Translations under genes and position numbers: made by a program
Part shown: piece after piece, positions 3,838-64,000 of the stretch
How positions within the stretch are numbered: position 1 is the stretch's first letter
Layout of the letters: each line of letters opens with the position of its first letter
Assembly (NCBI GenBank): GCA_965235115.1
Contig: OZ249436.1
Location: 26,166,001-26,230,000 of the forward strand
Reading direction: 5' to 3'
Source of the DNA: Laetmonice hystrix
Lineage: Eukaryota
DNA length: 64,000 nucleotides
Notes under the pieces: model-generated
Seen by the model: only the letters and a program-made list of their open reading frames with translations
What the model was told of the DNA's origin: nothing
Databases searched by the model: none

Positions 3838-5169
3838 ATGGGCAGTTGGCTGGCTAATATTTCTAACTTCTTTGGTTGGAGGACTGTGACGCCTCGGCAA
3901 GGCAATGACTTGACAAAGACTGAAAATAAAAGACCTGACCGTAATGGTTGGATGACTACCGGTACCACACGAGACTCAGGTGTGACGGATGACTTGCCTG
4001 ACTTAGACAGGTTATCTGACGTACATGACTTACCTGACATACGCAACCTACCTGATTTACCTGACTTGCGTAACTTACCTGATGAGCCTAGATGTAGGAC
4101 AAGGGAGGTGACAAATTTGACTATGTTAGAGAGGGATGACAAGTAGGCCTATGTGAGACACGACGTACCTGTGATGGCGTCAACGCCTCACATACATACT
4201 CAAGTGAGATTTCCCCCTGATATGAGAAATGATGAGTCAACCCATGTGACTAGACCAGGGTCCCAGATAGATTTGACTTCTGTAGACGGGAACTTTCCCA
4301 TAGACAGATCTCATAGAAAGCAAAAGGAGCCCATGAGATATAATGGAAAGGGAGATTGGGATGATTACTTGAGCCATTTTCAAGCTGTAGCCCGCTGGAA
4401 TGGTTGGAGTGATGCAGAGTGTGGTATGCAGTTAGCCATTAGCCTAGTAGACGATGCCAGGGAAGTTTTAAGTAGCCTACCATTAGAATGCAGGGGAGAA
4501 TATTTTCCTCTTGTCAGAGCTTTAGAGCAAAGATTTAGTCCAAGTGGAAGGGAATCCAGGTATTCATTAGAATTAATGAGACGGACATGTAGTAGCAGTG
4601 AAGACGTGACTGCCTATGGACATGCTCTCAGACGACTTGCTTCCAAGGCCTATCCTGGAAGATGCATAGACGAGCAGGTGCTCATAGATTTGTATATTCG
4701 TGGGTTACCATCCACAATGATGAAGAGATATGTGCATTCTCAGAGGCCTAGGACACTGTCAGAAGCCATTAACTTTGCGGTGACTTATGAATCTTTTGAG
4801 GATTCCCCGATAGACACAGATGTTAGGAAGTTGAGGAAACCTCAGGGCCAGATAGACGTTAGGCCAGTGTCAACCACAAATCTGCCTAGTAAAACTGACT
4901 TGACGGACAAGGTGTCAGCAAAGTTAGACAAGACAGTGAAGGTACTAGATGACATAGAGCGAAGGTTGAGACAGATAGAGAGTAACAGTAGTGGGCCAAA
5001 CAGTTACAATACAGGTAGACGACAGCCTATGTCTGGATCAAACTCATACAGACAGACTGACAGATCCAATATAGAGTGTTACAACTGTCATGAGAAAGGA
5101 CACATTTCTAGGGAATGCCCTAAAAAGAATGACTATGCTAGGCGACTTTCTGACAGAGGCCAGAACCTG
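3838..5169 (+). pseudogene. Gypsy gag (capsid-like region plus CCHC zinc knuckle), with one in-frame stop and a 3' end interrupted by MITEs
   Basis: ORFs 3838-4146 and 4153-5217 share a frame. Capsid-like YNGKGDWDDYLSHFQAVARWNGW and knuckle CYNCHEKGHISREC are present, downstream of an LTR and PBS. Confidence 0.88.
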
Positions 5170-5437
5170 GGGCCCGTCTTACTAAACATCGTTAAGCCCG
5201 ATCTAGTTAACTTATAGCTAGTTAATAACTAGAAATCGTTATTAACTAGAGCTAGTTAAAACCCGTCTTACTAAGGTCTAGTTAGTAGCGTAACGTATAG
5301 GGAGTGGTCTAGTTAACTTAACGACTGGGGAGGGGGTGCCGCTAACGTTGTAACGTTGTCTGGCTGTCGCCTTGACGACGGCCTAGTTAACCAGCAGTTA
5401 ACTAGATCGTTAATAACGATGTTTAGTAAGACGGGGC
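5170..5437. mobile_element. MITE with ~25-bp TIRs and CWG target (Harbinger-like)
   Basis: GGGCCCGTCTTACTAAACATCGTTA ... TAACGATGTTTAGTAAGACGGGGC, flanked by CTG and CAG. Confidence 0.8.
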
Positions 5438-5440
5438 CAG

Positions 5441-7595
5441 GGGGCCGTTGCATAAAAAGCCGCTATGTGTACGGGTTCCCGTTAAGTGTCTAACGGGTAC
5501 CCTAGCGGGCCAAAGTGTTGCAGAGACCTCAGTGGGAATCCCCGCTAGTGATCAAGTGTTGCAAAGTGCACAGTCGAGCGTGACCCGGCACCCGTTAACC
5601 GCTCCTCGCGGGCTATTTTGAGATGTTTTTAACCTGTACCTCGGGAGGTGCAGGTTAACACTAACGGGAGTCCCGCAAAATGCTGACATGTTTTTTTTTG
5701 GTATCTGCATGAGGTCATCGTAATCATTGGGGCGTCGTAATATGTATATTGATCTAACCATTTAATTTGTGATATCAGTGGCGGCGCTAGGGTTATATTG
5801 GGTGACTCGAGGCAAGATAAAACATAAGTATGAAATATCTCCGTAAGTAATAAACAATCATTTATTGACCATTAGTAAACATATCGCATATTGGCGTCCG
5901 TGTATGTGTAGTGGGTACGGATGGACCATTGTGCGAATTGTAGTATTGCAGCCGTGTCCTCCATGTGAGTTCACCTGTGACAACGCCCCGGAAAATGTGT
6001 GCCTGACTCTGAAATCCGCAAAGAGGAAACATATCGTTGATAAAAACAGTATAGATACATTTCCACATGTCTAAAGGGCGAAACACACACTGAACGCGGG
6101 GTTTTCTGAGCGGCGTATGGGCCATTCTCCAACTTGGGGGCAAATTGCAATTTGCAGACATGGACAATATTTACATCTTGGAGTCTTTTTTTTATCATAA
6201 AACTAGATATGTCATGACTCCAAAACAGAAACGAGCAGCGCACTTTTATACGTTTTTGTAATTTTTTTTCCAACTGCAAATAAGCAACACAAAGTCAATG
6301 TGTCAAATCCATAAAAATCAATTTATTGGTATTTGCTTAATATTAATTTCGACTATTCTTACTCTTTACTTAAGGCTAATTATATGGGAGCACGTCCAAA
6401 ATACTCACAAGAAAATGTTCTGTCATGGAGGTGACTATGTAACGGAGATGATTTTGGTATCATTGGTATCAATGAAATTGAAATAAATGTGGTTCAAAAA
6501 CATTCTATGTGATCTCTTTCACATGCCATTTGTGTTGATCAGTTTCTATGGTTACTTCTGTTTTATAGATGTAACGGAGCTGATGGATGAATAAAGCTAT
6601 AATTTGTTTCTCCACTTTTGTTTAAAATATAGATATGTTGAAAGATTCTTCAAGACGGAAGGTGAACCATGCACCTTTAAGTTCATCTCAGAAAACAAAT
6701 CATTTGATTGGTTCCTTAATTACCTCTAATATACAGCAATAGCTCGAGGATGGCGGCAGTTAGTTGTAACAGAGTTGATAACAAAATTCAGGACAGAGCT
6801 TTGGGGGTTCAACATGATAAAAGTAGATCTATGGATAGAGGGCCTACAAACTAAAATTTTCAGAACACAAAGTTCTAATTCTGTTCAGTTCAACTCTAAA
6901 ACCTGATATGTGTCTAAGATTAGATCTATTATAGTGTGGGACAATTTCACATTGGGGGGGGGGCAAAAGATATTCTCGCCCCCCCCCCTTAAAATTTTCG
7001 GCGCCCCTGATCTTACTTTTCGATCCAGTTATTTGACGCCCACTGGTCATTTGTGAGGCGCGGCATTGTCAACCAGTCGTTCAACCAGTGCACTTGCACT
7101 CGGCCATGCACTGTTTGTAAACACTCCCATACGCAATGGCATTTTCAAAATAACATGTTTGTTCGCGTGACATGTAGGCTCATATGCATTGGGCGTTCCG
7201 TTTCTAACGTTTCTTATGTACAACACTTGTGAGTAGTTCCCCAAGCAATGGATTTCGCGAAAGGTATAAGATTACTAGGAAATACCATGATTTGTCTTAC
7301 CTTGCAGACGACACTGGCGGGGAGCGATAATACGTGTGTTCGGCTTCTTCTTCGGTGTCTCACTGCAGTTGTGTCACGCGCATGTATTTACGGGAATTAT
7401 TAACGGGTTCCCACTATAGTGCGGGGGCCCAAAACATGATTTACGGGGAATGAATTTAACGGGTTTGGCGTTTAGTGGGATCCCGCTAGGTGGTGTTGTG
7501 CAACGCTTTTTCACACTAACTTAACGGGACAGACTAAACGCGACCCCGCTAACCTTCGTTATGGCATAACTAGTGGGATTTTATGCAACAGCCCC
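5441..7595. mobile_element. Non-autonomous TIR transposon with CWG target, probably containing a nested CAGTGG...CCACTG element (~5776-7045)
   Basis: GGGGCCGTTGCATAAAA ... TTTTATGCAACAGCCCC, flanked by CAG and CTG, with subterminal TAACGGG/CCCGCTA repeats at both ends. Confidence 0.78.
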
Positions 7596-7706
7596 CTGGC
7601 CCAGCCAGCAATGACGCAAGGCCGCTAGTTTATGTGAGGACGACCGCAGCTGGTCAGTGTTGGTATGTCAATGGAGTAGTGTGTGACCGTCCCATTGACT
7701 GGCTTA

Positions 7707-9955: not shown

Positions 9956-9987
9956 GATACTGGTGCTGCCCCCAATATATTAGACAG

Positions 9988-11880: not shown

Positions 11881-13342
11881 AAAATATAAAGCCCCATGAG
11901 AAGGGCTTACATCTGTCCGTCCCAAAGGACTCTCGTTACAGTTGATTCTGAAACATTCGGAGCCGGTCCTGCTAGTCCTTACGTCCATACGGACTCTGAC
12001 CGTCAAGTACAAATACACCAGCGACTGCTATCCTGCCCTATCTATCTCGGTCCTATCGCGCACCTTCGCCTCAAAGTCATGTTTCAGATCACTTTTGGCA
12101 CTGAAACTTGCTGAGAGTACACAATGTATTTTGTTGGATGTTATCTTAGTAGGTGAAATTCTCAGTTTGTTTGGTCAAATTCAGCGCAGCGCAGGCGACG
12201 AGCGGTGACCCAGTTTATCGGGTGTGCATATTTCCGACCTCTATAGTGGATCCGGAACGGACCGCATATAGGTCGCGCTACCTGGCGCTGACGGCACAGA
12301 GTGAAGCAACCCGTTTCGGGTATCCTGAGCGATATAACTTTTATCAGTTCCCGGTCACTCGGTGCACCGCAGATGCTTAGGGAGCCTTCGGACCCGACTT
12401 GCACGTAATCAACCGGACGTTTTATTTGTCCAATAATTATAATCAAGGTCAGAATAGCCATTCTATCACCTCTCCTCTCTGAAAATATCGATTTCATGCT
12501 CCATAGAAGAAGTTTAGTACCAAAACGAAGGCCGCAAAGTTCCGATAACGCACCTCTTCGCAAGAATTGCTGGGCAAACGTCACTCGACAACTAAACGGT
12601 GTTCTGGAAGACACCGTTTAGAAACTGAACTACCTTTGACCAGGGTTTATTCAGTTATTTTGTGCCTGATTAAATACATGGAAGGCTTACACGATGGTCA
12701 CGGGATGGTCTTATGTAGGCTACTCCCACTTTACTCTCCGCCATTACTGCTGCAGCTACCCCACTTCAAGATGGCGACCGAGCTTTCCATGCCGGAAGGC
12801 GGCATGGCCATTCAAGGGGAATTGTGGGATTTCTATGGTTTGGATAGGGTACAGTACAGTTGGGTGTAGCCCTACACTTATTAGAATGAACCATAATCAC
12901 ACGACACAATTTGTTAAATTTAACCAATCTATTTTTCCAGTGTAGCCTTAAAACAGTTAAGAACGCTTTATATGCATTTACTGACATCACAAAGAAGGGA
13001 CCAAAGAATCAAAAACTGACATTTCATACTGACTCCTCTGTTGAAAAAGAACCGCGGATATTACTGGAATGCGCCGTTGCGCATGCGTCTCGAGTCTCCC
13101 ATTCAGTGAAACAATGAAATTTCGTCTGAACTGTAACTGTTATGAGTGGATATTGGTCACTACCCGCTTTGTGTAATGTTTATGCTACTTTAACCTAAAT
13201 TTCCAACATTCCATTCTATGGCACAGCATCTGGTAGATTCATTAAAACAACCCATTGGAGGTGCTGGCCAGCGATGCACCCATTTTGTCCAGGTGCTCAT
13301 TAACATTACGTCATTATAACTAAGTCACGAAGTTTTACAATC

Positions 13343-13900
13343 ATGGACTACTGTGCCATATGCGAAGAACCTTTGGTTGATGATCAGCAAACCGGCACCC
13401 TTCGTGAAAAAGGAAGTCTTGGTGTGAACAAAGCAAGTGAACAGCGTGGGGATGATATCCAGACATCACCTGGACAATCAGTTCATGTTTTGTGTGGGAG
13501 AGACTACTGCAATCAACACATGATAAGCCGTTATTTAAAGACAAAAACAGCAACATCATCTACCCCCAGTCGCAGTCTGCGTTCACAAAGGCCTGGGTTC
13601 AACTTTCGGGAACACTCTCTGTTTTGCAGTCGGCCAGTGGTAGCCTATGTCCAGGAAAGAAGACGGCATATGATGACACGGCTGTGTTTCCAGTTAGAAA
13701 CGATGATTTCCAGGCTTCTGTTGAAACTGCGTCTAAGAACCGTGGTGATGAGTGGGCTCATCAAGTCCAAAATAGGATCAAATTTGCACGAGATCTGCAT
13801 GCCGTAGATGCTGTTTACCACCAAGTCTGCAGCATTAACTTCAGGACAGGGAGGCAAATTCCTTTGCAATACCAGAGTTCAGAGGTCGACCAACAGACGG
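13343..13900 (+). pseudogene. Frameshifted N-terminal fragment of a DNA-transposon protein (Academ-like)
   Basis: Overlapping ORFs give CAIC...VH..C.RDYCN...LRS...FNFREH.LFC and RGDEWAHQVQNRI...DLHAVDAVYHQVCSINFRTG. This pattern is recalled from large transposon proteins of marine invertebrates; the family assignment is tentative. Confidence 0.5.
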
Positions 13901-28100: not shown

Positions 28101-29870
28101 CACTCTCGCGGGATATGCCGAGATTAGGCACCAGCGGGCATTATGAGCGGGTGACTGTAAAATGTTTGTATAAATAATTGTACTTTGCTTATTATATTAG
28201 TACATGTTGTAGTACTATTCTATTTTACACATATATTTGACACTGAACAAGACCAGTTACATAGGGTTGTCATCAATATGGAATGCCCCTTCTTAACAAC
28301 TTATTATCAAGTTGACCATAGGAATCAACCCGCAACTCGACAACAGTTTAACAAATGCTGGCCCAATTTCAGCTTATTCCAATTTATCTAATTACATAAT
28401 TTTTATTTCGGTTATATTTGATAAATATCCTTCGCCTCCCGTGACAAGTGATGGCGGGGGAAGGTATAGGCCGGTAGGGGGCCCATGAGTTGTGCTGCCC
28501 CGGGGCCGGCCCTGGCTGTCGATGCCACTGCTCAAAGGGCACTTACCTACAGAACAGGCGCGGATACAGGACTGCAAAGGGGGTATGTACGAAAGCCCAG
28601 AAGGCTCATGCGAAATTCGAGATTCGAAATTCGAAATTCGAAATTCCATATCTGATCTGACCAATCGGAATTCTTGTTGCATAGATCTATGCCCTATACC
28701 TAGATCTCTTTTAAGCCCCTTGGACGAAGGGACTCAGAAAGCTGTTTTAGGCACGGCGCGGCCTTTGCATTTAGGTCTTATAGCCTAAGCTGCTTAGGTC
28801 TAATCAATGCACGCAGTTAATTAGGCCATGGCCTAAAGATATAGCTATATCCTCGTAGGCCTAGTGGTGGGCTTTATCTCTCCTATAGCCTAGGCCTATT
28901 AAAGCAGTTTAAAACTTAAATATTAGGCCTAGGCCTATAGACCATTCTAGGCCTAGGCTAATCTAACGTAGTAGGGCTAGGCCTACTAATCAAATTCGCA
29001 AATTAGGCCCAACGCCTGGGCGCTTAATTACGTGTAGATCTAGGCCCCCATATAGCCCTATGCTAATTAAAGACTATAAGCCTATGACGCAGTCACTGGC
29101 GCCGATTACGACCCGATTGCCCCATTCGGGCCTATAGACCATCTAGGCCTAGGCTCATTGGCCGTGTTATCTGATTGGTCGATTTCATGGTCGATTTTAT
29201 GCAAGCTCTCCTAGCATTGGTCAAATCAGATTTCGAGAATCAGATGACACGGCCAAATAATGAGCCAAGGCCTAGATAGGTCTATAGGCCTAGGCCTAAT
29301 ATTAATATTTAAGTTTTAAACTGCTTTATTAGGCCTAGGCTATAGCACAGATAAAGCCTGCCACGCATGTATTGTATACAAAGATATCGCTATAGAGTCG
29401 GCCTAATGGGGTACTATACGCCAAAACACTCGGAAGGTGGCGCTTCCACCAACTAAGCCATCCAAAAACGAGGTTGCCATTGTAAAGGATAGGGTGGCTA
29501 CCATCAAGCCACGATTACACTTCTTTCGGGTCGTTTGTAATATTCAGACATCGTGAAAAGTGCAGACATATGTCTCTTTTGTTTTCGACATCAAACGATA
29601 CCTAATTTAAAAGATGACAAAAATTTGAAAAACCATTATTTGTATCAATGTTACCGGTTCGAGGCTAGACCTATTGTCAGAACCAATCAGCCTAGCGCCA
29701 GTTAAAAGAAATGCAAAGCCATGTACTCACAACAGTTCGGTGTCAACCAGGGGAGAAGAAAAAAGATTCGAAGAACGGAAGTGGGTAGGAATACAAACTC
29801 GGCGACATCCGCTAAGATCCGTGTTACAACGTAGTCCCGAAACCAACACCAGACGGCAGTACTGGCGTAA

Positions 29871-29887
29871 TCTCTTTTTCCTTCCTT
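29871..29887 (-). promoter_or_regulatory. Polypurine tract
   Basis: Minus strand AAGGAAGGAAAAAGAGA lies 3 nt before the 3' LTR. Confidence 0.85.
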
Positions 29888-30093
29888 GAAGGAGCAAACA
29901 GTCCCTCATTCAGTCTAGGTATGCAGTCTATGGACTGACAGATACGTAACCACTGTCTCAGACGTTGAAGCATAAAAGGGGTCTTGTCACATGTAAATTC
30001 AATCACAGCATTTTTTTCTCTTTTTCTTTTCCTTTTTCTATTTTTTTTTTTTGTATTTTCCTATGAACGATCACTTATTACTATCGTGACCAC

Positions 30094-33000
30094 CTATGAT
30101 AGCTCGTAATCCATCAACCGTTTAGGTGGTCGACGGATTCGGTCAGAACGTCTTAGTGACTGGCTGACTGTTGTCGCTTCTGTAGAATGATCACTGTCTT
30201 CAAAGTGATCTATAGGGGCCTCTATGCTCTGGCTGACCTCATTCGGAATACTACTGTCCTCTATAGGCTGCGCTACGGTCGAGAGATCTCTTTCGATCCG
30301 ATGTGGAGGCATAGCTATATCGACAGGTACGACAGGTGGTTGAGGCGGTTCAGTGGACTGTAAGGGGTACTCAACGATGTCATCTATACTATTGTCATCA
30401 TTGACACTGCTTGTGTCTCGCGAATTTAGCAAGTAACTATGGTCGACATGGGGAACCTTGTAGCATTCTGAAGACTTTACTCTATACGATGTGCTCCGTA
30501 GTTGTGAACCCACAAACTTGCGGATATTGCACCATGATCCTTCAACACGGACCACGAGATATCGATTTCTCGCCTGGGACTTGTTGCGATCGCTGTAAAG
30601 ATACACCAAATCTCCAACCTGAAGATCAGCTGAAGGGTTAGCCCTCCCTCTAGGTGACTTTGAGATTTCACTATGGGCGTGATTAGATAAGCGTTGCTGA
30701 TGTTTTTTGATAATAATCTCACGATCATTGAAGGGTATTTGTGCGTTGGAAAATTGATCGCGATGTGTCCATAACTCCCTTGCTGATAGGCCTTGAGACC
30801 GAATACGGGCATTAAGTTGAGCAGTGGCGATGGCTAGCTCTACTGGTGTAACAGTACCCCCTCTAGGCTCATGACGTAAAAGCTCATCTTGTAACTCTTT
30901 GATAGCTTTTTCTGCGATTGGGTTTTTGTTAAGGTTTTTAACTCGGCCAATCTCTACACAGATCCGATTCTGTCGTAGTACAGCATCATTGGACAAAGCA
31001 GTAAACCCAGGGGCAGGATCAGTTCGAATGACAGCAAGTGGACCATCCAATGGCCGCATCTCAATACACAGCTTTATCAATGCATCGCGGAGGGTCTCAC
31101 TGCGCTCGTTTTCCACCAAGCAAGAGCAAGTGAATGACGTAGTACACTCCCTGAGAACAAGAATAAATTGACGCTCTCTCCTCATGATGTCTGCTGCAAA
31201 AGACACCCCGATGGTCTCTGGTGGTTCAGAGGAAGACTGTTTCACGACTGAGTTAGGTACACTTTGCAACGAGCAACACTGGTGACAACTGCAAGTAACT
31301 TGATCCACATGCTTGTCCAAGTCTAGAGCAAAGAAATATCGTTCAGCTACCAGCTTTAATTGGTGTCTCGTGGGGTGATTTAGTTGTATATGTAGGGCTG
31401 TTAGCAAACCAGTCACTACCTGCCGTGGCACAATTATGCGTTCTCGGACTGACGCTAGAGGTTGTTCCTGTCTGACCACTAACAGGCCATCTTTTGCAAT
31501 GGTGGCGACACCTAAATAGCGCTTAATGTCTCTGATGTTGGTCAACTTCTTCGAGGGTCTCGTCCCCTGAATGAGGTGAGCATGAGTCCGACGTAAGTCT
31601 GGACACTCTGCTTGACAGGCTAGCCATGCTGTCCTGTTTGTAAATGGTATACGGCTCCTACCTTGGAGTACATCTTGTACAGTTACCTGAAGCACAGGAG
31701 AATCTTCGGTTTGGTTTATGAAGGTGCAAACCTGACATGATAGGTCGTTGCATTTTTGAGCGTTGCGACTTGCGAAGTCAGAAGGAATATTAGCCACACC
31801 CGCTAGATGCCGAACTGACGCTTGATACCGGCTGATCATAGATAAGAAAGTGGAGACCCTTGGGCTAGAGGAAAATTCCCCACGGCATAACTTTTCATAT
31901 GCTTGGACGCATGGTTTGCTGTCGGTGAGGATGCACGCATGATGTTTGGATTGTATTATGTAAGGACTGAAATGTTTTGTAGCGACCGCTATAGAAAGAG
32001 CCTCTACTTCACATGGAATCCAAGTAGCCTGGCGGCCACGTAACTTCGCACTGAAAAATCCAGCCAAACGTAGTACACCATCCTGCATAACATAGAGAGT
32101 AGCACCGATGCCATGATTCTTCACTGCTCCATCGGTAACAATCCACAGTTGATCTTTTGGTCTTGGGAGGACAATAGTTTTGTTGGAAACTAAAGTTTGT
32201 TGCGCACGCGAGAAGGCAGCACGGAGCTCATCTGACCACGAAATGTCCTCATAAGACTGTTTTCCGGCCACCGCATCATCCAAAGGGGATAAAATTGATG
32301 CGCACCCAGGAATGACACGAGACAACACCTTATAAGCTCCTATGAAGGACCTCAAGCCTTTGACTTTTCCAGGAATGCTACAGCTCGCAAGAGTTGAAAT
32401 ACGATGGTGACTGGCACGTATGGAACCGAGCTGCCATATCCATCCAAGAATTGTGGTGGACTTTGGACAAATAACTGTTTTAGATGCAGATAGCTTTAGG
32501 TCAGCCTTGCTCAAGGCGTCTAGAACCCTACCCCAGCTCTGGAGGAGTTCACTGGGAGAGTTTCCCCCACAGTAAAGATCGTCTGCGATCTTGACAACTA
32601 TGCCTTCCTCGACCAAGTCTCCTAGTACCCTGCACATCAGCTCTTCAAGCGCTGTCTCTGAACCCGGCATACCCATGGCCGACCTTGCGTAGACTCGAAC
32701 CCCTTTAAATGGAGTGGCAACTCCGCAAAACTTCATCGACTCCTTTGATAGGGGAATCTGATAAAAAGCATTTGTGAGATCAGTAGTTATGATGTACTTC
32801 CACTGTGCTATACTACGAAGTGTGGAATCCACATCAGGAAGGAGTGACGGTTGAGGCTTGCTGTACCTTCCTACATCGGCGAAAGCAGTAACCAGTCTGA
32901 ACCCACCATTTCGCTTCTTAACGAGGAAGGACGGATTCAAATACTCCACTGCTACGTTCACATCCTCAGGGCGGACAAAAACACCCAGCCTCTCTAGCTC

Positions 33001-35061: not shown

Positions 35062-35268
35062 GGTATGCTAAGTGTATGACAAACCTGGACGATAATTCAG
35101 CTAAACTACAACGTAGATCCTCTCTGCTCACGTACTACAGATTTAGTACGGCGTAGTTGACACTACCAACCAACGTAAGGAGGTGAACTGCTCGTCTTCT
35201 GACAGTGACGTGGCTTGCACAGATAAAGATGTGTAAGTAAAGAGTTCTTGGAGGGAAGTAGCTTCGTT

Positions 35269-35286
35269 ATCCCACCGCTGCCACCA
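35269..35286 (-). promoter_or_regulatory. Primer-binding site, tRNA-Leu
   Basis: Minus strand TGGTGGCAGCGGTGGGAT directly abuts the 5' LTR and matches the recalled complement of a tRNA-Leu 3' end. Confidence 0.85.
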
Positions 35287-37619
35287 CGCCAGTTAAAAGA
35301 AATGCAAAGCCATGTACTCACAACAGTTCGGTGTCAACCAGGGGAGAAGAAAAAAGATTCGAAGAACGGAAGTGGGTAGGAATACTGTAAACTCGGCGAC
35401 ATCCGCTAAGATCCGTGTTACAACGTAGTCCCGAAACCAACACCAGACGGCAGTACTGGCGTAGACTAGCGTGACATTCAAAATGGCGGAGTTCCAGCTG
35501 TCACTTCAACTTTTGTAACTATTGGAATAACATGCAAATCACGCCAAATGAACACCTAACGTGGCGTAGGTATCTGAAATGTGATATTTCATGAAATACC
35601 CCTCGTACAGAACTGAAGACTTGTCTATTATCTTTAGTCTACGCCCATAAGGTACTGTCGGCAGTGAGCAGGGACAATGTTTTGATCACGTGACTTGATT
35701 GTGCCGCAATATAGCCTAGACGTCTAGGCTGCTAAAAGACCTTCAGTTCGTCTATTCAGACTTAGCACAATCTTCTATGTCTCGATGTCGTGATGCTTCT
35801 TCTGTTAATGGCTGCTACTATGCTCACAATCTGTGATAAGCTAACGTGTGGTTCAGCAGAGCCTCCAGTCAGGCTGAGCCAAGCCTATCCAGGCCTACTG
35901 CATGGCGTAGTTGCTGACAGCGCCACCTGTCGGATTAGTTCTGAAAGTACCCCATTAACTGCGTGCGTAGATTAGACCTAAGCAGCTTAGGCCGCGCCAT
36001 GCCTAAGAAACAGCCTTCTGGCTTCATTCGAAATTCGAAATTCGAAATTCGAAATTCTATATCTAATCTCACCAATCGGAATTCTTGTTGCATAGGCTAT
36101 AGATGTGGATCTATAGGCCTACACCCTTGTACGAAGGGAGCCGTTTCTATAGCCTAGGCACGGCGGCCTACGCTAATTAGAATCTAGGCCTAATAGACTT
36201 TTTAGGCCGAGGCCTCGCCTATAAGCTGCTTACGCACGCAGTTAGGCTATCTTCGTAGGTCTAGACGTAGGCGGGCTTTAGGCCTGTCTCACAGGTTCCT
36301 CTGAGTCCTAGCCAAGGCCGGATCCAGGATTTTTTTCGGGGGGGGGGGGGGGCACAGGTGTATGGGTGGATGAATGGACCCATATACCTACCTGACATGG
36401 GCAAGGGTCAGTAGGCCTATGGGGGACCAGAACCCTGCTTTTGAAAAAAATCGGGGGGGGGGGCTGCGCCCCCCTAAATCCGCCACTGCTAGCCTAGCCT
36501 AATGGGGTACTCTCAGAACTAATCCGACAGGTGGCGCTGTCAGCAACTACGATATGCAGTAGGCCTGGCTAGGCTTGGCTCAGCCTGGCTGGAGGCTCTG
36601 CTGAACCACACGTTAGCTTATCACAGATTGCGAGCATAGTAGCAACCATTAACAGAAGAAGCATCACGACATCGAGATATAGAAGATTGTCCTACGCCAC
36701 GTTAGGTGTTCATTTGCATGTTATTCCTAGTTATTTCAATAGTTACAAAAGTTGAAGTGACAGCTGGAACTCCGCCATTTTGAATGTCACGCTAGTCTAG
36801 GCTGATTGGTTCTGACAATAGGTCTAGCCTCGAACCGGTAACATTGATACAAATAATGGTTTTTAAATTTGTTTTCATCTTTTAAATTAGGTATCTTTTG
36901 ATGTCGAAAACAAAAGAGACATATGTCTGCACTTTTCACGATGTCTGAACATTACCAACGACCCGAAAGAAGTGTAATCGTGGCTTGATGGCAGCGACCC
37001 TATCCTTTACAATAGCAACCTCGTTTTTGGATAGCTTAGTTGGTGGAAGCGCCACCTTCCGAGTGTTTTGGCGTATAGTACCCCATAGGCCTAGGCCTAA
37101 AGCAGTTTAAAACTAGGCCTAAATATTAGTAAATTTATTAGGACCTAATCTAGCCAAGCCTCAGCCAGTGAGGCTTACGACCACTCCCAGCATGCATCTC
37201 TCTGATCTAGCCAGGTCCCCTGCTCTACGTATACGTAACATGGCAGACGCGTCTGTTAGGCAGGGTACCAGGCTACTCTCTGACCCGGGAGGTCAAAATA
37301 GCCGCGATAGGCAGAGAGCGAAATTCATCAATTACAGACTTTGTGCTGCCCTATTATGTCTCATTGTGCTTTCCAAGTTTGTAAATTAGTGAGATAACTT
37401 ACTTTAAGTGGGTTTATCAATATTTAGCCCAGATAGGCCTAGGCTATATGGGCAGGATAGGGGTTTTCATGGTGGTCCAACCCAGTCGGCCCGAACCACG
37501 TTTGATATTTGTGGCCCCGATCGCCTCCACTATAGCACAAGATCTCGTGGAGAGAAGAATCTCTATGCATAAAATTATTTTGCCGTGATCAGCTGGTTGA
37601 CCAAACAGTAGTCATTCGT

Positions 37620-39245
37620 AGCGTGGAAGGTGGGGCATAACGGAACCATTAATTTTGACACTTTGTAACACATTTGTGCTTACACTCAGGATCCTCATAT
37701 CCACGGATCCAATACATGCTTACGTCATCTTTAGAATAATAATGATGAAGAGTACCATACCTATCAACTTACTGATATAATGGACAAAATATTTTTTTCT
37801 GGCAGAGGACCACTTTGCCCCATGGGTCGGGTAATATGGCACCCCCCTATGGGGCAATATGGAACCCCCTGTTCCGTTTTGCCCCAGCTAGATCTAAATC
37901 TATAAAAGAATACCGAGGTCTTAATGAAAACAAATGGTTTTGACAGACAACAATATTCAAAAATGGTTTAATTCACCATTCACTAACTTAGTTATTGATC
38001 AAGCAGAACCCTCTTCATACCTTTTAGATGAAGAAAACCTCAGAATGGAAAAAAATAAAATTGTGTTTAGATTTTCTACACTATAGTCCTTTTAATGAAC
38101 ACTAGTTCTGAATAGGCCTAAACTTCTTATCTATAAGTTAACTCCAAAGCCATTTTTCCAACTATTGATCGTAATATGTTGAGACTGGCTTCATAAAACA
38201 TGCAGCCGTTGGATGTAAGTGGGCGGAGTGTCCATCTAAGATCAACAGGACGGGGTTTTCGATTGCGGGGGAAAAAAAGAGATTTTATGAATAAATTTCG
38301 GCTCCAATTTCTTCGAGAAAACATAATCTGGCTCCTTCTGTGGTTGAAAGAAATATACCAGAAAATAGAAAGAAATTTTCTGGCTCTGAAATTGTGCGAA
38401 AAAAATATTCTTCTAAACCAAATCTTCCTAACCCCCCCAATAAAGTTAAATGGTTGGCCCCTAAGGCTAGTAACAGTGTAGGCCTAAGTGTAGGCCTAAG
38501 TGTAAAACAATCAAAAGTCAACATCCTATTTCCCTTCTGACAGGAGAATTGGATAATTATTAAAGAAAATATTTTCGAGATTACTTTTGGCCTAATGGAA
38601 TGATAATAATCAGCAGGTGGGGCAAAATGGAACACCTGGGCCCGGTTTTTAGTTCGTCATTTTACCAATCTTAAGACTGGAATTTTAAGACTGACTTGTG
38701 TTATGGTCTCTCATTGGTTGACTTCATTTGAAGGACCAATTAGAAGCTCTGAAACAAGAGTTCCGTCTTAAGATTTGAATCTGAAGACTCGGTTTGCAAA
38801 CTAAATACCTGGGCAGGCGGGGCATAATGGAACACGGGTCCATTCTGCCCCATCTCATAATGGACCATTTTGCCTCAAGGTCATTTTAGTCGACTGGGAC
38901 TCCACAGCCAGAAATCGGCTGGGAAGCTGTCGATCATGAATATTCTTTGATTAGGCTAACTGAAACATTATCTTCACAGGCAAGGTTAGGTTTTTCGGAA
39001 TCTCTGATCATAATTGGAACTACCGATCTCAGAAAATGTGCTTACCCTATATCAGGAGGGTCAAAATTATTTGTGCCTCTCAATATCCTGCCACGTTGTA
39101 CGTCTGACCTGGATATTTTGACGTTATGCCCTGGTGGCTAGACTCTATAATTACACAAAACGTCGCAAGGCGGCAGCACCTCCAAGGTATAGATCTAAAC
39201 AAATTCCACTTTGCCCCATGGTTCCATTTTGCCCCACTTTGCCTA
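37620..39245. mobile_element. DNA-transposon remnant with GGGGCAAAATGGAAC repeats, with a small CWG-type MITE nested at ~38637-38816
   Basis: The motif occurs in both orientations at ~37630, 37850, 37875, 38618, 38820 and 39222. Confidence 0.5.
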
Positions 39246-39305
39246 CTGGGTAGCGTGGCCTGCTTATGATCCGAAGGCCATGGGTTCGCGCCCAACCATA
39301 ACCAT
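39240..39305 (+). mobile_element. Possible tRNA-derived SINE head fragment
   Basis: A-box-like GCCTACTGGGTAGCG and B-box-like GGTTCGCGCCC at tRNA-like spacing. No complete cloverleaf. Confidence 0.3.
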
Positions 39306-39384
39306 TGGTTTTTTGGTTGTTGTTTTCCCTCATTTTTCAAAAAGGGTAAAGCCCGACCATCGGCCGATCATCGCAGAACGTTAA

Positions 39385-39870
39385 GGCCCGGCCACACAGA
39401 GCCGACTACCCCCAACCCGATGGTCGGAGGCCCGGGGGGTCCAAATCGGCCAACTACTCAGTCAGTCTGATATATGCCCAACCATGCCACGCTGAATGCG
39501 ATCCGAAAGTCGGGAGTGGGATGCCACACTAGCGACACCACTCGTGACCAGTATAGGCCTATACTATTGTAACTATTCATTCCCCTAGCGGTATACGTTC
39601 CAACTCCGCCATGTTGTTTGTGTTGTCCCGCTCGCAGGGTATCTTGGGAGTCTGGTCGGTAGGTATGCCACACAGGCCCGACTAGGCCCGACCAGACCAA
39701 ACCGTTTGGTCGCTCATCTTGTGCAGGACAAGATGAACGACCGACTGGTCAGTCGGTGAAAAACACCCGACTACGGCCGACTGACCATGCCAGACAGGGC
39801 CAACTACCCCCGACTCGACTCCCCCAGACCATCGGGTCGGGGGTTGTCGGCCGCTCTGTGTGGCCGGGCC
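39385..39870. mobile_element. Harbinger-like MITE nested in another palindromic element (~39348-40003)
   Basis: TIR GGCCCGGCCACACAGAG ... CTCTGTGTGGCCGGGCC with TAA/TTT flanks. Outer inverted CGACCATCGGCC repeats are present. Confidence 0.75.
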
Positions 39871-40539
39871 TTTAATTATAGTTGCAGTGATCCGGCCGTC
39901 GGCTGACCGATTGCTGAGAGTTAGGCCTAAGTGACGTGAATTTTGACCTGACGTCGAGCGATGGTGGGCCGATGGTCGGCCGACGGACCGGCCTTTGCTT
40001 TAAAGTATAGCTACAGGGAAGTCAATCAGCATAACATTATCTGATTGGTCGATTTCATGGTAGATATGCAAGCTCTCCTAGGATTGGCCAAACGAGATTT
40101 CGCGAATTTCGAATCTCGAATTTCGAATCTCGAATTTCGAATCTCGAATTTCGAATTTTGCATGAGCCTTCTGGGCTTTCGTAGGTAGGCTATGCCCTCA
40201 GCGCCAAATGCGCGAGGCGAACAGGGTCTGCAGGGTCTGGGCTGGGCACCTCCCTCAGAAAAATGTTTGAATTTAGAAGGCAAAAAATGCTATTAAATTG
40301 TGACAGAATGCAAACGTTTCTCAAGGAATTTAGGCCTAGTCTATAGGCCTAATTTTTGTAACTTCTTCAAACTAAGGGTAGCATGTGACCCAAGAGGGGG
40401 TCGAACCGCCTCCCTCTAGTTCCGCGCCTAGAACAGGAGTGCGCCCCCCAGCTTCACCCTCGTCTAATCGGGCCATTTAGCCCAATAATTTTTTAATTAC
40501 ACGTTGTGTGTCAAACAAAAGGTATAGTATGCCTATATA

Positions 40540-41813
40540 CGGGTAGTTTCCGATCGGTAGTACGACAGGTTCCCGAGTGTCCTACGAAAATTGTCCGTTC
40601 AAAGAAAATTATTGAAGACTGATGGGCAACTACTCGTTGGAATGTTGTCAAATAATCGGCAACTGGTCGGCGATTTATCGGCGATAATGAACGACTAGTT
40701 GCAGATTAGTTGCCGATGTTCGTATGGCGCTCGGCAGTCTCTGGAGGAATCGCTCAGTAGGCCTATTCCACAAGCTGTTGAAGACGAAACATCCCAACAT
40801 GGTTCTGCCATTTCAACCAAGACAACTACAGATGCTGGGATTGATGCTGCAACACGAAGAGGAAAATGACGCTGCTGCATTGGCTCTTCTGCTGTACCAG
40901 AGAAGAAGAAGGAGAAGACGGAGAAGTTCTGGATGAGGCCATGGATTTTGGATGTGAAAGAGCCGACTAACGGCAGGTCGTCTTTCTTGCTGGTCTCTGA
41001 GCCTGGGACTGCTGGAGAGGTTGGGGTCTCCTCTGACTCTATGGTTTGATGGTGACCACCTTTAGTCTCCATCACCAGGGGCCCTTCCCTCTCTTCCTGG
41101 TCCTCACTTGGCACTTGTTTGGGCTTGGGAATCAGGCTGCCATCACTGTTATTGTCTGTCTGGGCTCGTCTAGCTCTCTTACCCTTGCCCCTCGCCTTCG
41201 TGGAGACTCGATTGGGCATGGTTTTAGTATGTTGGATGTGAAAGAGCAGACAGGTCGTCGTTCTTGCAAGGTGAAAAGGGAATGGTTGTCCACTGTGCAC
41301 ACCAATTTATACTGTCCTGTTAAGTGGTCCACGAACGGTAGACGACAGATCAGCGGGTAGTTGTTGTTGGTTGGCCAATGGTCGGCGATTGTTCGTGTGT
41401 ATTTCGCCAACTGAAGGTTGAACCAGAAGGTTTTTGATGCAGCAGCATAAACCTCCAGCCGATCAAAATGCTCGAACAACCACTTACCGAACACTGGTAA
41501 CCTTTTACAGACTACTAAAAATCTGTACATACAACCTCTGACAACCAACTACCGACCAGTGGTTATCAGCAGTTGTGGACCATTTGCCAACATTCCCACG
41601 AACGGTCGCTCATCAGTCTTCAAAAATCTTTGATGATCAGACAATTTTCGTACGACACTCGGCAACCTGTCGTACAACCGATCGGTAACTAATTGCCCAA
41701 TGAAATTTCTTGCAGATTTCAGGTTTTTGATCGTCAGTGGTTGTCGTTGGTCGCAGCTTTTTTTGGTTGTTGGAAGTCGGCGGTTGGTCGTACCTCTTGT
41801 GTGACTGGGGCTT
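40540..41813. mobile_element. Internally deleted PIF/Harbinger element retaining the 5' ends of both convergent genes
   Basis: Plus strand ALALLLYQRRRRRRR then (frameshifted) KFWMRPWIL resembles a Harbinger transposase N-terminus. Minus strand MPNRVSTKARGKGKR may start the partner gene. Inverted subterminal blocks lie at ~40543-40600 and ~41640-41692, and the right end is GTGTGACTGGGGC. Confidence 0.62.
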
Positions 41814-43261: not shown

Positions 43262-45920
43262 CACTGAAATTTTAGGTCGTCAAGGATTCGTCACATGCTT
43301 GTCAAAGTAACAAGTTTAGCCTTGTCAAGGACACTGACAAACTATTGACAAGGTCATTCTCACAAACTCGTCATAAAGTCCGTTGTAACTGCTTAGAATG
43401 TCGCTTACTTGACACGTGTTTTACACTTTCGTAATGGATGCCGACGGGAGTTAGAGGACACGAAAGAAGGTAAGCACTGCTTACAGTAGGCCTAATCTAA
43501 ATAATCTGGTATATAAATGGTGTTATATTGTGTCAGATTATCTGTATATAACAGCAGAATGTTCTTTAGACTTGGGTGGGATGTTAATTTTTGTAAAGAA
43601 TAGAAGGATGCCCCTAAAATTTATTGATTGAAAATAGGCCTCTTGCAAAAAGCCCGACAGTAGAGGCCTTTGGCTTTGTCTGGTATGAGAGTTTTGGCGG
43701 GACGGAATAGGGGGAGGGCCTAACACTGATTAGGCCTGGGCTAGGGTTTAGGGAATTCTTGGATCCGCACCTGGTTATAGCCTGATATAGGGGGGGGGGG
43801 GACAAATAATAATCGAGCCCTTTTTTTTTGACAAGGTGACGAGTTAAAACTTGTTGTTTTAGGCACCGTCAATTGACAAGCCAAAACTTGTTTATTTGAC
43901 GACCTTTTGACAAGTCTCTAGTTGACAACTTTTTGACGAGTTACAGTAGTTTTTGACAAGGTGACGAGTTAAAGCTTGTTGTTTTAGGCACCGTCAGATT
44001 GACAAGCCAAAACTTGTTTATTAGACGACCTTTTGACAAGTCTGTGTTTTAGGTGTACTCCTTTTTGGGTGCTTGGATTGGGTAGGCAAAACTACTCAGA
44101 TTGGCGAATATTTAAGTAGTTTTTGCCCGCTGAGATTTTCTATGCAGGGTAGAGAAGTAATGTTGGCTTGGTCCTCCAGGCCGTAGGGGCCAAAGTGGGG
44201 ACACTGACGCTAGTACACTGAAAACTTTAGGACGTCAAGGATTCGTCACATGCTTGTCAAAGTAACAAGTTTAGCCTCGTCAAGGACACGGACAAACTAT
44301 TGACAAGGTCATTGTCACACACTCGTCCGTTGTAACTGCTTAGAATGTCGCTTACTTGACACGTGTTTTACACTTTCGTAACGGATGCCGACAGGAGTTA
44401 GAGGACACGAAAGAAGGGAAGCACTATGCTTACAGTAATCTAAATAATCTGGTATATAAATGGTGTTATATTGTGTCAGATTATCTGTATATCATAGCAG
44501 AATGTTCTTTAGACTTGGGTGGGATCTTAATTTTTGTAAAGAACAGAAGGATGCCCCTAAAATTTATTGATTGAAAATAGGCCTCTTGCAAAAAGCCTGA
44601 CAGTAGAGGCCTTTATCTGGCATGACAGTTTTGGCGGGACGGAATAGGGGGAGGGCCTAACACTGATTAGGCCTGGGCTAGGGTTTAGGGAATGTAGGCT
44701 ATAAATTAGGTCCGTGTCTGCTTCATTACATCATTAACACAACCAGTATAGTAGACAGCGTGACATTGGATGATCTAATTTTTTTAGCCTAAAGCTCATA
44801 ATTTACATCAATTTAGTTTCTGCAACTTTTTTTTTGCTTGTTCAGGGGTCGGGTGGCAGTCCTGATGTTACACAGGCGCGGATCCGCCCCCCTAACTTTT
44901 ATTTTACACCAGATGCCAGGAAATCACATCTAAGCCTATCTTATTTTGAGAATTTTCTGTGGACCCCCCCCCCCCCCCCCGCAGAAATTCTTGGATCTGC
45001 ACCTGGTTATAGCCTAATATAGGGGGGGGGGCAAATAATAATCGAGCCCTCCTCACATTTTGGGGGCATGAACCCCCAATTCCTCAGTTCCATCACCCCT
45101 GTTAATAAGTACCCCTGTCTCATTTTGTTGTAACCAGAACCTTCCCGGTCATTTTTCTGTTCTTTTAAAGTAATCTTCCAGTTTACCAAAAAATTTAGAT
45201 AGCCTCCTCGAATTAACAGGGTCGGCCAAGATAAGTAAGGCCAGTTTCTTTAAATGACATGAAAATTGAAGGTCCAGAACATATACCGGTATTAACATTT
45301 TACTTGTGTATTTCAGGAGTGAGAAGGCCGTGGAAGAACAAGCATGAGCAAATCGTGTGCAAAAAGCTGCAGAGGCTTACTGTGAGTCTGTCGATGTATT
45401 GCAGTAAAAAAGAACTATTTCTTCACATGTACTATACAGTTAGTGAACTAATATGGACGTGTTTAACGTGAGGGGAGGGTTCTTTGATTTTATATTTCAT
45501 GGAAAAAAAAGAGTAGTGACTGTTGATGATGTCTTAAAGTTAAAAAGACAAACTGGTTATTGTATTAGTTATAAAGGATATCCCAGCGTCAAAGCAGTGT
45601 ATATGGAAAACGTGAAATATAGGGATTTTACTATCTCCATCTGTCAAGTTGTTTGTTTTGTCTGACAAACCTTTAAATAGTTTAATTAAATGTTTTTCTT
45701 CTCAGTGTGTTGCAGGCGTTTTTTTTTCTTTTCAGACATTGGCATGGATAACAGGTCCATGATTTATGCAGGGTATCCAGTCTAGTTTTTGACAAGATAT
45801 AGTGTTCTCGACAAGTTTTTGACAAGGTGACGAGTTAAAACTTGTTGTTTTAGGCACCGTCAATTGACAAGCCAAAACTTGTTTATTTGACGACCTTTTG
45901 ACAAGTCTGTGTTTTCAGTT
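43262..45920 (+). mobile_element. Two tandem copies (43262-44055 and 44216-45920) of a CACTG-ended non-autonomous element (EnSpm/CACTA-like)
   Basis: Both start TA|CACTGAAA, share ~480 bp of 5' sequence and end in TTGACAAG/TGACGA subterminal repeats. Copy 2 carries extra internal sequence. Confidence 0.72.
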
Positions 45921-60590: not shown

Positions 60591-60623
<33 letters not shown>

Positions 60624-61195: not shown

Positions 61196-61787
61196 TTTGC
61201 CTACATATTGCCAAATATCAAGGGAGGAGATGCAATTTAAGCTGTTTAACATCTTTGACCTAGATCTCACAAAGGTCAAAAGTCAGAGGTCAAATTCACG
61301 ATTAATGCAAGTGCCTAATTAGGAACTATCATGCAGATTGCTCCTACTTTTCCAGAAATTCAAGAAATGAGCCCTCCTTTGAGAAACTTTAACACGTCAT
61401 AAGTCATTGACGTGACGTCATATGACGTAATCAGTCAATAGCTGATCATTTTAGTGGATGATCAATGTTCCCTGCAAGTTTCATGACGATACCTCCATAA
61501 ATAACCGAGATACACCCATAGTCTTACTACGCCAATAATCAGAAGAAGAAGAAGAAGAAGAAGAAGAAGAAGAAGAAGAAGAAGAGTGTAGATAATTATG
61601 AACAAAAAAACACAAATCTCACCTTTCCGCATGTGTTTTAGGGGTTGAAATATTTGGCATATTAATCCGTTTTGCCCAGGTACCTGGGCAAAAAGGATCT
61701 TTGCTCCGGGCAAAGAGGGTCAGTTCCTATGTTAGGGTAGATTCTAAAAATAAGTTTACCTATAGAGTTAGGTTCAGGTTCTCTCAC

Positions 61788-62030
61788 CGTTATAGTTTAC
61801 CATGCCGTCCCCGTCCAGATCAGCTTCCCGAATCATCTCGTCCACCTCCTCGTCCGTTAACTTCTCTCCCAAATTTGTCATCACATGTCGGAGTTCAGCA
61901 GCCGATATGAAACCGTTGCCGTCCTTATCAAATACTCTAAATGCTTCTCGTAACTCGTCTTCACTGTCTGTGTCTTTGATCTTTTTTGCCATCATGTGCA
62001 GAAACTCTTCGAAATCTATGGTGCCATTTC
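61788..62030 (-). CDS. Calmodulin-like protein, internal exon (EF-hands II to IV)
   Basis: [81 protein letters not shown]; 243 nt, bounded by ttgcag| and |gtgag. Confidence 0.95.
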
Positions 62031-63523
62031 CTGCAATGAAAACAGATAAGTGGGCCCTAATGCGTAGTGTCCAACCATCCTGATTTCGTTGGGATTTCCC
62101 CCATTTTGCTTGAAAATCCCGAATCCCGATGCAATCTCGATCGGGATAGGAAACTTTATTTTTGAAGATCTGCTCACACGAAGATATTTGTGTCAAATTA
62201 TAGGGGTCTAATACTTGTCATACGAGGAAACGAAACACTTAAATTGGATATCCAGGTGAAGTCTTATTTTATTGCAATAACATTTTTTAGGCAACAAGCC
62301 TAAAATGACGATCAATTTACGCCTTTTTGACAGAAATATTCGTCTGAGAGCTAGTGCTGGAAAGGGTGTTTCAGGACCTCCACATTTTAAAGATTTCTCC
62401 TACAATTTAAATCCCGATTTGGGAAGGTCCATATGTTGGACACTCTGGATTAGTGTTTACTGTTTCTTCGCACGCAGTTACATACGGCCTTGTTCGATCA
62501 GGCGAGAAAAGTATATTTTATTAGAATATAGTTGTGCATTCGGGAATCCTCGGCCATATCTTCGAAAGTAGCCTCGGTGAAATAGGTGCCATTTTGAGCA
62601 TTGCATCGCGGGTACATTTAGCCGGGACTCTCGACAGCATGGCAGTGCTTGCAGTATTTTGTCTGCATCAGGCATGGAAGCAACTAAAATAGGCCTACAA
62701 TGCTTTCCCCGAAGTCAGTGGGCAATATTACAATAGTATCATGTTATGATACAACTTAAATTACAACATGATTACAAGTAGTCCTACCATGTGTCGGGCC
62801 AGTGTCGTACATGGGCGTGGCCATATTGCTTCCCAGAATTTGATAAATTACCGTATTGACGCCCATTTAGGTAAATTGGGTGATTCATTTTTCTTCTTCA
62901 AACGTTCCCCTTCATACCAGAAATTTATATTTGCACATACAACGCCGAAGGAGCAGGTGTCAATAATGCACTACTTCCTGGCTCGATGGGATATGACGGT
63001 TCACTCAGTGCCTCGCTACACACCTCCATTTGGCCGTGTATCTGGTTGCCAAACATGGCCGCTATTCCACCCGAGGGTATATTCGAATAGCAGGAAGTGA
63101 CGTCATATGCCCGAGGGAGTCCCGAATGATCGTTTTATGATATCTTTTTTTTCAGTACAGATGTATTTGATACAGTGGCCGGGAAGCGAATGATTTCCCC
63201 CCGAACCTTTCGTGCTTTCGAAGGAATACAAATGTATAGGTTTAGCCTAGGCCTATATATAGTTGACTTAGACATCTGTTTGAACAGATACAAAGGGCTC
63301 GGGTCCTTGCAGCCACCTGTTTAACTCAGTTTTTCGTTTTTCTAAAGAAGACGGATCACCTTTTAATGTGTTCCACTCAATTCGTGAGACTTGGCCTTTT
63401 GGTATTATTTCAACACAATCTTTGTATCTATGATAGGTCTGACTTTGCCTCTCCATCGTGGACCCCGAGGCGGATTAATATTATAAGGAAGTGGTTAGCT
63501 AGGTGTCCGTCTACTATACCTAC

Positions 63524-63667
63524 CGTCAGCGTCCACCTCGTTGACCATATCCTGTAGTTCGGGTTCGGTCGGGTTCTGACCCAGTGACCGCATAACGGTG
63601 CCAAGCTCTCCTGCACTGATAGAACCATCGCTGTTCTTGTCAAACAGAGAAAAGGCCTCCTTAAATT
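63524..63667 (-). CDS. Calmodulin-like protein, exon encoding EF-hand I and the start of II (5' exons presumably beyond the window)
   Basis: [48 protein letters not shown]; 144 nt (canonical size), bounded by ttcag| and |gtagg. Confidence 0.95.
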
Positions 63668-64000
63668 CTGAAATACACACATATTATCGTCGGTGAGACA
63701 CACATTCGTGTATTACAATAACGAGAAGCGTTTTACACACGTTCGCTAAACTTTGGGTAGAGACTATTCGTGGAGCTCCAATGGTTATTTAGGCCTACTT
63801 CTCCTCGAATTATTTTTAAATGAATACTTTTCAGGGTACATCCATATGCATTGCTTCCACTAACCCTATTTTGTACGTCACAGAAATCGTATTCAACCTT
63901 CGATCCCTAGACCCATCTAGTACCTACACTATACCTGTCTGTACCACCTGTCGAGAATGTTGGAAAAAGCGGCACACTGATTTTACCAAATTCGTACTAG

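Follow-up and report, generated by a model that had tools for sequence, protein, structure and literature searches.

Transposons that cut and paste at TA dinucleotides leave footprints upon excision, the footprint of Tc1 being TACATGTA. In Tc1/mariner elements, 2 to 4 terminal bases remain between two copies of TA, as in the TACAGTA/TACTGTA footprint of Sleeping Beauty (PMC6943129, excerpts). The pogo element Passer leaves footprints of 0 to 4 bp and favors regions of transcription start (PMC9976928, excerpts), and for Stowaway miniature inverted-repeat transposable elements (MITEs) of the Triticeae, excerpts of PMC1925063 describe historical footprints with 1 to 4 bases of the terminal inverted repeat (TIR) inside TA duplications as well as re-insertion into old footprints. 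Fot and Fot-like elements are placed in fungi, protists, and algae, and not in animals, in excerpts of Gao et al. 2020 (PMC7386202), where most Fot elements have TAA duplications and TIRs of 40 to 60 bp; in supplement 3 of that paper a red-algal Fot-like row has the TIR motif GGGGG, and of the 162 HTH_psq rows the 30 covered here are all fungal; the others could include animals. Here, we describe a 64,000-nucleotide stretch of the Laetmonice hystrix genome (contig C1, positions 26,166,001 to 26,230,000; assembly of 627 Mb in 35 contigs), referred to below as the window, which is rich in the word TAGGCCTA. Judged from sequence, these words are very probably the mass excision footprints of a clade of the pogo superfamily with G-R-G ends and a PHD-bearing transposase.

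Excess of TAGGCCTA and the spectrum of related words

The window contains exactly 40 copies of TAGGCCTA (overlaps counted), located from position 4144 to 63790 and including four tandem pairs, whereas Markov models of order 1 to 3 predict 0.8 to 2.6; the count of about 40 against about 1 expected, which the initial annotation had made by eye, is thus confirmed. Among the 8-mers seen at least 8 times, only poly-G/poly-C are more over-represented. The variants TAGGCTA, TAGCCTA, TAGGCCCTA, and TAGGGCCTA occur 13, 20, 5, and 2 times, respectively. The excess extends to the whole genome, with 168,757 copies versus 3,469 of the reversed word, a control that may run low because the reversed G/C words contain CpG. 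The genome mean is one copy per 3.7 kb, and the window exceeds it about 2.3-fold. In a 464-kb sample composed of the window and 40 stretches of 10 kb, 8 of which were picked beside rich regions, 157 copies were seen versus 8.7 expected (order-3 Markov model). At six bases each, the approximately 1.7 x 10^5 exact scars would amount to about 1.0 Mb or 0.16% of the assembly, chance occurrences and co-amplified copies included.

The related words form a series of the type TA-G(1-4)-C(1-4)-TA with the order G2C2 >> G2C1 > G3C2 > G4C2, where the numerals give the lengths of the G and C runs. Genome-wide, G2C1 plus G1C2 reached 92,745 (35,932 for the reversed control), G3C2 plus G2C3 19,570 (2,284), and G4C2 plus G2C4 6,042 (533), whereas TAGGCGCCTA was barely above its control (276 versus 172). 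G2C0 and G0C2 words showed no enrichment in the 464-kb sample, and the G(n)C(m) counts nearly agree with independent lengths on the two sides. TAGATCTA was likewise in excess genome-wide (37,955 versus 9,864). Words mixing the two types were much rarer, with 14 copies of TAGGTCTA and 23 of TAGACCTA in the sample (6.7 expected each), and TAGGACCTA plus TAGGTCCTA were seen once (3.2 expected). Across the 16 possible combinations, the flanks of the 157 sampled scars are nearly random, with a depletion of T before the TA (0.18 versus 0.27). In 1-kb bins, TAGGCCTA is over-dispersed (variance/mean of 1.9) and co-varies with the 7-mers, the 9-mers, and TAGATCTA, but not with TACATGTA. Since the spectrum has the form TA-G(1-4)-C(1-4)-TA, the responsible ends should be G runs rather than GGC, and spectrum and co-variation together suggest a single TA-duplicating group, whose ends are G-G-G or G-A and which is distinct from the CAG-ended Tc1 and pogo elements.

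Some further words were in excess as well. TACATGTA (79,253 genome-wide, control 28,579) matches many CAG-ended Tc1 and pogo elements, such as those at loci L119 and L044; as TACATGTA is in excess while TACAGTA/TACTGTA are not (81 versus 84), the scar of CAG-ended elements is of the 2+2 type and not the Sleeping Beauty 7-mer. TACCGGTA (14 versus 3.5), TAACGTTA (18 versus 6.0), and TAATTA (283 versus 169), all enriched in the 464-kb sample, may be scars of other families.

Insertion at TA in repeat copies

Comparison of repeat copies revealed that the additional bases enter at a pre-existing TA, which becomes duplicated. For two sister repeats of the window, the initial annotation had noted a difference of exactly this type. 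In the repeat at 43.26 to 43.76 kb, represented by 29 distinct copies, the six extra bases at 43487 are present in the window copy alone, and because they are absent from 19 of 20 distinct homologues, the difference is an insertion and not a loss. In another copy of this 500-bp repeat (L008), three further TAs each have a private insertion, GGCC in two cases and GGC in one, and a third copy shows a change of TA to TAGATCTA. All repeats fetched by then were passed through a filter for private insertions of 2 to 14 bases, with at least three distinct empty copies and at most 20% carriers, which retained 79 insertions. Eleven of the 16 6-mers were changes of TA to TAGGCCTA and 4 of the 11 5-mers changes of TA to TAGGCTA/TAGCCTA; furthermore, there was one 8-mer changing TA to TAGGGGCCTA, and 15 of the 24 2-mers changed TA to TATA. 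Thus, 15 of 27 private insertions of 5 or 6 bases in repeats are of the footprint kind, and polarized changes of TA to TAGGCCTA occur in repeat copies.

The proposal that TA sites are being converted by insertion is borne out by these private events, but it does not apply to each copy as an independent event: 14 of the 40 words of the window are common to most homologous copies and hence inherited, and the one at 38479 is a 12-bp tandem duplication. For 19 of the 40, fewer than two homologues were available for judging polarity. Tandem arrays hold only 13 of the 157 sampled words; in the initial part of C1 (C1:19565-90405), each unit of a satellite of about 850 bp contains one TAGGCCTA. The TA of a 146-bp satellite family, considered as a further site, gave 4 pattern matches versus 4 in the control and no GGCC scar. 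As the initial annotation had stated, the word is absent from the young LTR (long terminal repeat) element of the window (Table 1) and from host exons, the latter being a weak test with two located coding stretches (Gemin6-like, 592-1137; EF-hand, 61774-62217).

A family of G-ended pogo transposons as the candidate donor

The candidate donor was reached via weak DDE_1 matches with long open frames at ten loci. Two of these (L229 and L234) had G ends on both sides, three (L227, L233, and L235) had one candidate end, and the other five had none. The element L234 (contig C10) spans 3,484 bp with TA-GGG...CCC-TA ends, the hyphens marking the element borders, and an open frame of 655 codons; L229 (contig C7) is about 3.07 kb long with TA-GGGG ends, has an open frame of 712 codons, and has three or four near-equal matches in the genome. 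The proteins combine the Pfam domains HTH_psq (five of six proteins) and DDE_1. In L234, the catalytic triad is intact (D-D-35-D), and the spacing is 35 in four of six proteins and 36 in two. The C terminus has a PHD finger of the C4HC3 type, in which two Trp residues are invariant; Pfam PHD matched all five proteins searched at E <= 0.002, two of them over the cut-off. The nearest solved PHD structures include those of PHF13, PHF23, PHF2, CXXC1, and BPTF, which we take to be readers of trimethylated lysine 4 of histone H3 (H3K4me3); no solved structure matched the transposase core.

Within its own genome, the clade has at least 100 matches at E <= 1e-20, with 99 of 324 candidates scored, and the databases contain 1,364 homologues, of which the named ones belong to molluscs, an annelid, and arthropods. 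In several homologues, including P0021, P0028, P0034, and P0035, PF02338 (an OTU domain according to one database name) occurs as an extra domain. In a tree, which did not include a reference Fot, the donors are separated by a long branch from CAG-ended DD29-30D pogo elements (weak support, 78/100) and group with mollusc, annelid, and arthropod proteins. A DDE_1 transposase with a DDxD triad, TIRs, and TA duplication are the features of the pogo superfamily, and HTH_psq plus DD35D those of Fot/Fot-like proteins; the donor is filed under pogo and not under Fot-like.

TIR pattern scans with overlapping sets yielded 75 ends versus 3 in the control, 139 versus 2, and 202 versus 6. The ends are GGG(G) or GAG, and one copy is a GA...CC hybrid. 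Among 100 listed ends of the 139-end scan inspected by hand, 78 begin with TA-GG (55 GGGG, 15 GGG, 7 GG, and 1 GGC). The terminal G run varies within one TIR family, a pattern that erosion of the ends in transposition or repair would produce. A tandem array at C4:40509656-40510492 consists of units of about 47 bp with a G-ended TIR in each, and a GAG-ended MITE (L177) lies about 5 kb to the right of the window. TA duplication is evident from a host repeat with 41 copies, 34 empty and 7 filled, in which the far ends read CCC-TA followed by the same host flank. The donor did not stand out in blind scans for TIRs and boundaries over about 0.9 Mb.

The initial annotation could not identify a donor in the window. 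The family has a 1.62-kb member there, at 37,625 to 39,243, with damaged ends. This copy is 95 to 96% identical to three others, which are 99% alike and have perfect TA-GGGG...CCCC-TA ends, and in six distinct empty paralogues its insertion site reads as one TA or as a point variant of TA.

Several observations connect the G-ended elements with the scars. The inserted bases correspond to the terminal 1 to 4 bases of resident TA-duplicating elements, the G(n)C(m) series to GGG(G) ends and the GATC series to GAG ends, and the latter would account for the co-occurring TAGATCTA. For scars and for G-ended element ends alike, T is depleted and G raised before the TA. By hand count, three of the 78 TA-GG ends occupy a TA belonging to a pre-existing TAGGCCTA, versus about 0.3 expected. 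Of 30 G-ended ends, 6 have a scar at a distance of at most 40 bases (0.27 expected); with two loci removed that had been picked after the scar was seen, the count is 4 of 26. CAG ends gave 2 of 40, and ends of AT-target MITEs 1 of 40. In 80 metagenome loci with donor homologues, a TIR pair was detected in 28, of which 19, from 17 families, begin with TA-GGG and none with TA-GAG; the 59 non-redundant loci (224 kb) contain 74 TAGGCCTA (1.6 to 2.8 expected), 53 of the 7-mers (15 to 17), and 8 of the 9-mers (<1), whereas TAGATCTA is not enriched (1 versus 1.3 to 2.0). The initial annotation had interpreted the words as excision footprints of an element that cuts and pastes at TA, and this idea is supported, a fitting donor family having been found.

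With respect to location, long open frames have 3 scars per 4,184 TA versus 157 per 31,151 TA overall; as these frames are mostly young transposons, the figures do not separate age from selection. YY1-like motifs (22 of 144 scars versus 6.1% for random TA) and poly-G/C tracts (50 of 144 versus 16%) are found close to scars more often than expected, with P values inflated by clustering, and TAGGCCTA showed no association with E-box, CRE, or ETS motifs. By analogy with the start-site bias of Passer, and considering the PHD finger, the transposase might target promoters, a suggestion drawn from these two features rather than from gene annotation.

Proposed mechanism and alternative explanations

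In the proposed course of events, the element inserts at TA and duplicates it, as seen in filled and empty paralogous sites. On excision, the nontransferred strand would be cut about 2 bases inside each end, as expected from the biochemistry of Tc1/mariner/pogo elements, giving TA-GG and CC-TA. End joining would then retain both overhangs to form TAGGCCTA or drop one base to form TAGGCTA/TAGCCTA, and occasionally the third or fourth G of the terminal run would be kept, which is consistent with the G(n)C(m) series. GAG-ended sister families would leave TAGATCTA, and hybrid copies, whose ends were observed, TAGGTCTA/TAGACCTA. Re-targeting of scars and copying inside other repeats, both observed, would produce the tandem and clustered words. 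Regional clustering may reflect a chromatin preference or local hopping, and the C-terminal PHD finger may steer the transposase to H3K4-methylated promoter chromatin.

The initial annotation had favored ends of the type GGC...GCC. A different, unseen element with such ends and a Sleeping Beauty-like 3-base overhang would yield TAGGCCTA by GC-end pairing and the 7-mers by three-base pairing, which explains the 8-mer and both 7-mers neatly; it would also relieve the difficulty that the G-ended families found look few for the number of scars. However, it leaves the G3C2 and G4C2 words and TAGATCTA unexplained, the near-control count of TAGGCGCCTA disagrees with it, and no GGC-ended TA element was found among Tc1 elements, CAG-type pogo elements, TIR scans, and filled/empty comparisons, the single GGC end among the 78 being the damaged window copy. 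We consider such an element very improbable and GGG(G) or GAG the ends of the donor. A host process at TA breaks is likewise very improbable, be it untemplated G addition by a polymerase like terminal deoxynucleotidyl transferase or addition of a partial repeat by telomerase. Two-sided G addition does predict the nearly independent per-side lengths, but the symmetry of the GG-CC and GA-TC pairs, with mixed words much rarer, is that of inverted repeats, the depletion of T before the TA is opposite to a TTAGGG primer, the TA duplication would still require an integrase, and elements with exactly such ends exist. With a donor family at hand, the uncharacterized TA-directed insertion process that the initial annotation had held in reserve is not needed.

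It is also hardly credible that the excess stems mainly from slippage and the copying of a few ancestral words within repeats, or that the word was selected as the binding site of a protein near promoters. The inherited words, the tandem duplication, the satellite at the start of C1, and the proximity to YY1-like motifs fit this explanation, and yet few of the sampled words lie in tandem arrays, the flanks are nearly random, and de novo insertion took place repeatedly at unrelated TAs, thrice in one 500-bp copy; copying multiplies scars but cannot create them.

Certain observations weigh against excision of G-ended pogo elements as the source. No segregating TA/TAGGCCTA indel was seen in the contigs of one sample (12 of 197 indel rows covered). 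A site in all three states, empty, filled, and scarred, was not encountered: there were no scars among the 41 copies of one host site and none among the six empty paralogues of the window site, <1 being expected at the genome-wide rate. A pattern search for the latter host site gave no scar either, the first letter of the pattern excluding empty copies. G precedes the TA in 54% of the elements (42 of 78) versus 31% of the scars, and later slippage is another possible source of the G3/G4 variants. TAGGCCTA and TAGATCTA stand at 4.4:1 despite about equal numbers of GGG and GAG ends today (54 and 46 of the first 100 rows of the 202-end scan, counted by hand, 11 of the GGG rows stemming from one tandem array). 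In 52 of the 80 metagenome loci no TIR pair was detected, and the 80 loci need not represent as many host species. Finally, only a few hundred ends, a lower bound, were found for 1.7 x 10^5 words, so that turnover must have been very long or very fast; since the end count is a lower bound, there are at most about 10^3 scars per element.

Other candidate donors were considered. Tc1-like loci (PF13358) and the top 30 pogo loci (PF03184) have CAG or TAC/TAG ends where ends were found, which fit TACATGTA and not TAGGCCTA, and PF13613 loci showed no ends within reach. MITEs of the ISL2EU type with AGGG...CCCT ends were rejected because they duplicate AT, with A before the element in 20 of 20 cases and T after it in 19 of 20; scars of such a donor should have A...T flanks, and just 9 of 157 do. 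For Zator, which has GG ends and a 3-base duplication, no PF07592 match of the TP36 type was obtained in the genome, a search in which the control was likewise silent, and the scars show a 2-base duplication.

The impact of DNA transposons is usually measured by surviving copies, and here a few hundred detectable ends stand against about 1.7 x 10^5 scars. Excision would be a leading source of small insertions in this genome, can add stop codons, and can mislead motif discovery. Now that donor sequences are available (open frames, TIRs, and MITEs up to 99% alike), reading over-represented words as footprints becomes directly testable. Tentatively, and with considerable doubt, the data could be extended to a widespread, little-described animal clade of PHD-finger pogo elements that reads H3K4-methylated chromatin, makes about a thousand promoter-side hops per surviving copy, and acts as a sequence-specific insertion mutator writing much regulatory DNA; in that case, the terminal bases of the resident elements would predict which TA-palindrome-TA word dominates a genome, and this word would record past transposition.

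Other features of the window

The coordinates of the features are compiled in Table 1.

TABLE 1 Scars and mobile elements in the window (positions refer to the window)
Position	Strand	Feature	Evidence or remark
4144..63797	.	Field of 40 TAGGCCTA and variants of 7 and 9 bases, scars of the form TA-G(n)-C(m)-TA	Window and genome counts
4144..4151	+	TAGGCCTA whose TAG is an in-frame stop in a Ty3/gypsy gag-like frame	No homologue, so polarity not fixed
28590..40181	.	Nonautonomous element, TA-CGA...TCG-TA, with nested insertions	Holds 22 of the 40 words, most inherited
29696..35461	-	Young Ty3/gypsy-type LTR element, internal negative control	0 TAGGCCTA among 309 TA
37625..39243	.	1.62-kb nonautonomous G-ended pogo-like member, inserted at TA, both terminal G/C runs damaged	Sister copies, empty paralogues, TIR pattern match at both ends
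39554..39561	.	Scar missing from high-depth contig of its host repeat	6 letters left out in contigs of 3/3 runs, one sample
39922..39929	.	Private 6-base insertion at TA	Absent in 4/4 homologues
40758..40765	.	6-base indel at TA, polarity not fixed (single homologue)	Absent in 1/1 homologue
43487..43494	.	Private 6-base insertion at TA in repeat with TA-CAC ends; sister has plain TA at 44436	Absent in 19/20 homologues

The nested element at 28590-40181 has subterminal arrays of ATTCGARATTCG; TACGCGTA, the scar matching its ends, was not enriched in the 464-kb sample (0 versus 1.4). The LTRs of the Ty3/gypsy-type element start with CG and end with CG instead of the pattern TG...CA, and comparison with the empty host site indicates duplication of TAG, a 3-base duplication being unusual for Ty3/gypsy. 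Around this element, an ISL2EU-type MITE with AT-GGGG...CCCC-AT ends and long inverted arms (29406-37080) is rearranged; a putative TA-GAC...GTC-TA element at 35462-36799 was rejected, as it is internal to a larger MITE. A transposase locus with HTH_Tnp_4 (ISL2EU/Harbinger type) in tandem copies of about 7 kb is located 60 to 130 kb to the left of the window (C1:26032115-26103566). Two overlapping Cys/His-rich frames at 13304-14019 lack a Pfam match and presumably resemble a frameshifted gene of a large DNA transposon.

Comparison with known systems

In the open library searched, which lacks most subscription journals and Repbase reports that could describe such elements, no report of TAGGCCTA as a footprint or of its genome-wide excess was found. 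TAGGCCTA, TAGGCTA, and TAGCCTA are probably also very common in some fish genomes. PMC4700943 has no passage on AGGCCT/StuI.

The donor shares the TA target and the DD35D triad with Passer, for which footprints of 0 to 4 bp and a transcription-start bias are described; unlike the donor, Passer has BrkDBD/HTH_Tnp_Tc5 and, among the supplement rows, CCGTA-type ends, which would leave TACCGGTA (PMC9976928, excerpts). With Fot/Fot-like elements it has in common HTH_psq (there with or without HTH_Tnp_Tc5) plus DDE_1, DD35D, and TA among the accepted duplications (PMC7386202, excerpts), whereas its TIRs of about 25 bp, its proteins of 600 to 950 residues, and the C-terminal PHD finger set it apart from the Fot/Fot-like elements of these excerpts; the term PHD has 0 occurrences in the main text of PMC7386202. 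The Stowaway footprints concern single plant loci with a mariner-like partner (PMC1925063, excerpts), in contrast to the genome-wide word excess described here.

As in Tc1/mariner footprints, a TA duplication flanks 2 to 4 terminal bases of the element, with end joining after staggered cleavage; unlike in canonical Tc1/mariner cases, G/C runs would be retained, the main class is 2+2, and about 1.7 x 10^5 inherited copies are found in a natural genome. The PHD finger of RAG2 targets V(D)J cleavage to H3K4me3. By analogy, the donor would combine a DDE nuclease with a PHD finger potentially able to recognize promoter chromatin, with the difference that the finger resides on the transposase itself and that its histone binding is a prediction; such a transposase would show that DNA transposition guided by chromatin occurs in nature. 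The mechanism as such is already known from the footprints of Tc1/mariner/pogo elements, and what is new is the donor clade, the scale, and the possible PHD-guided targeting.

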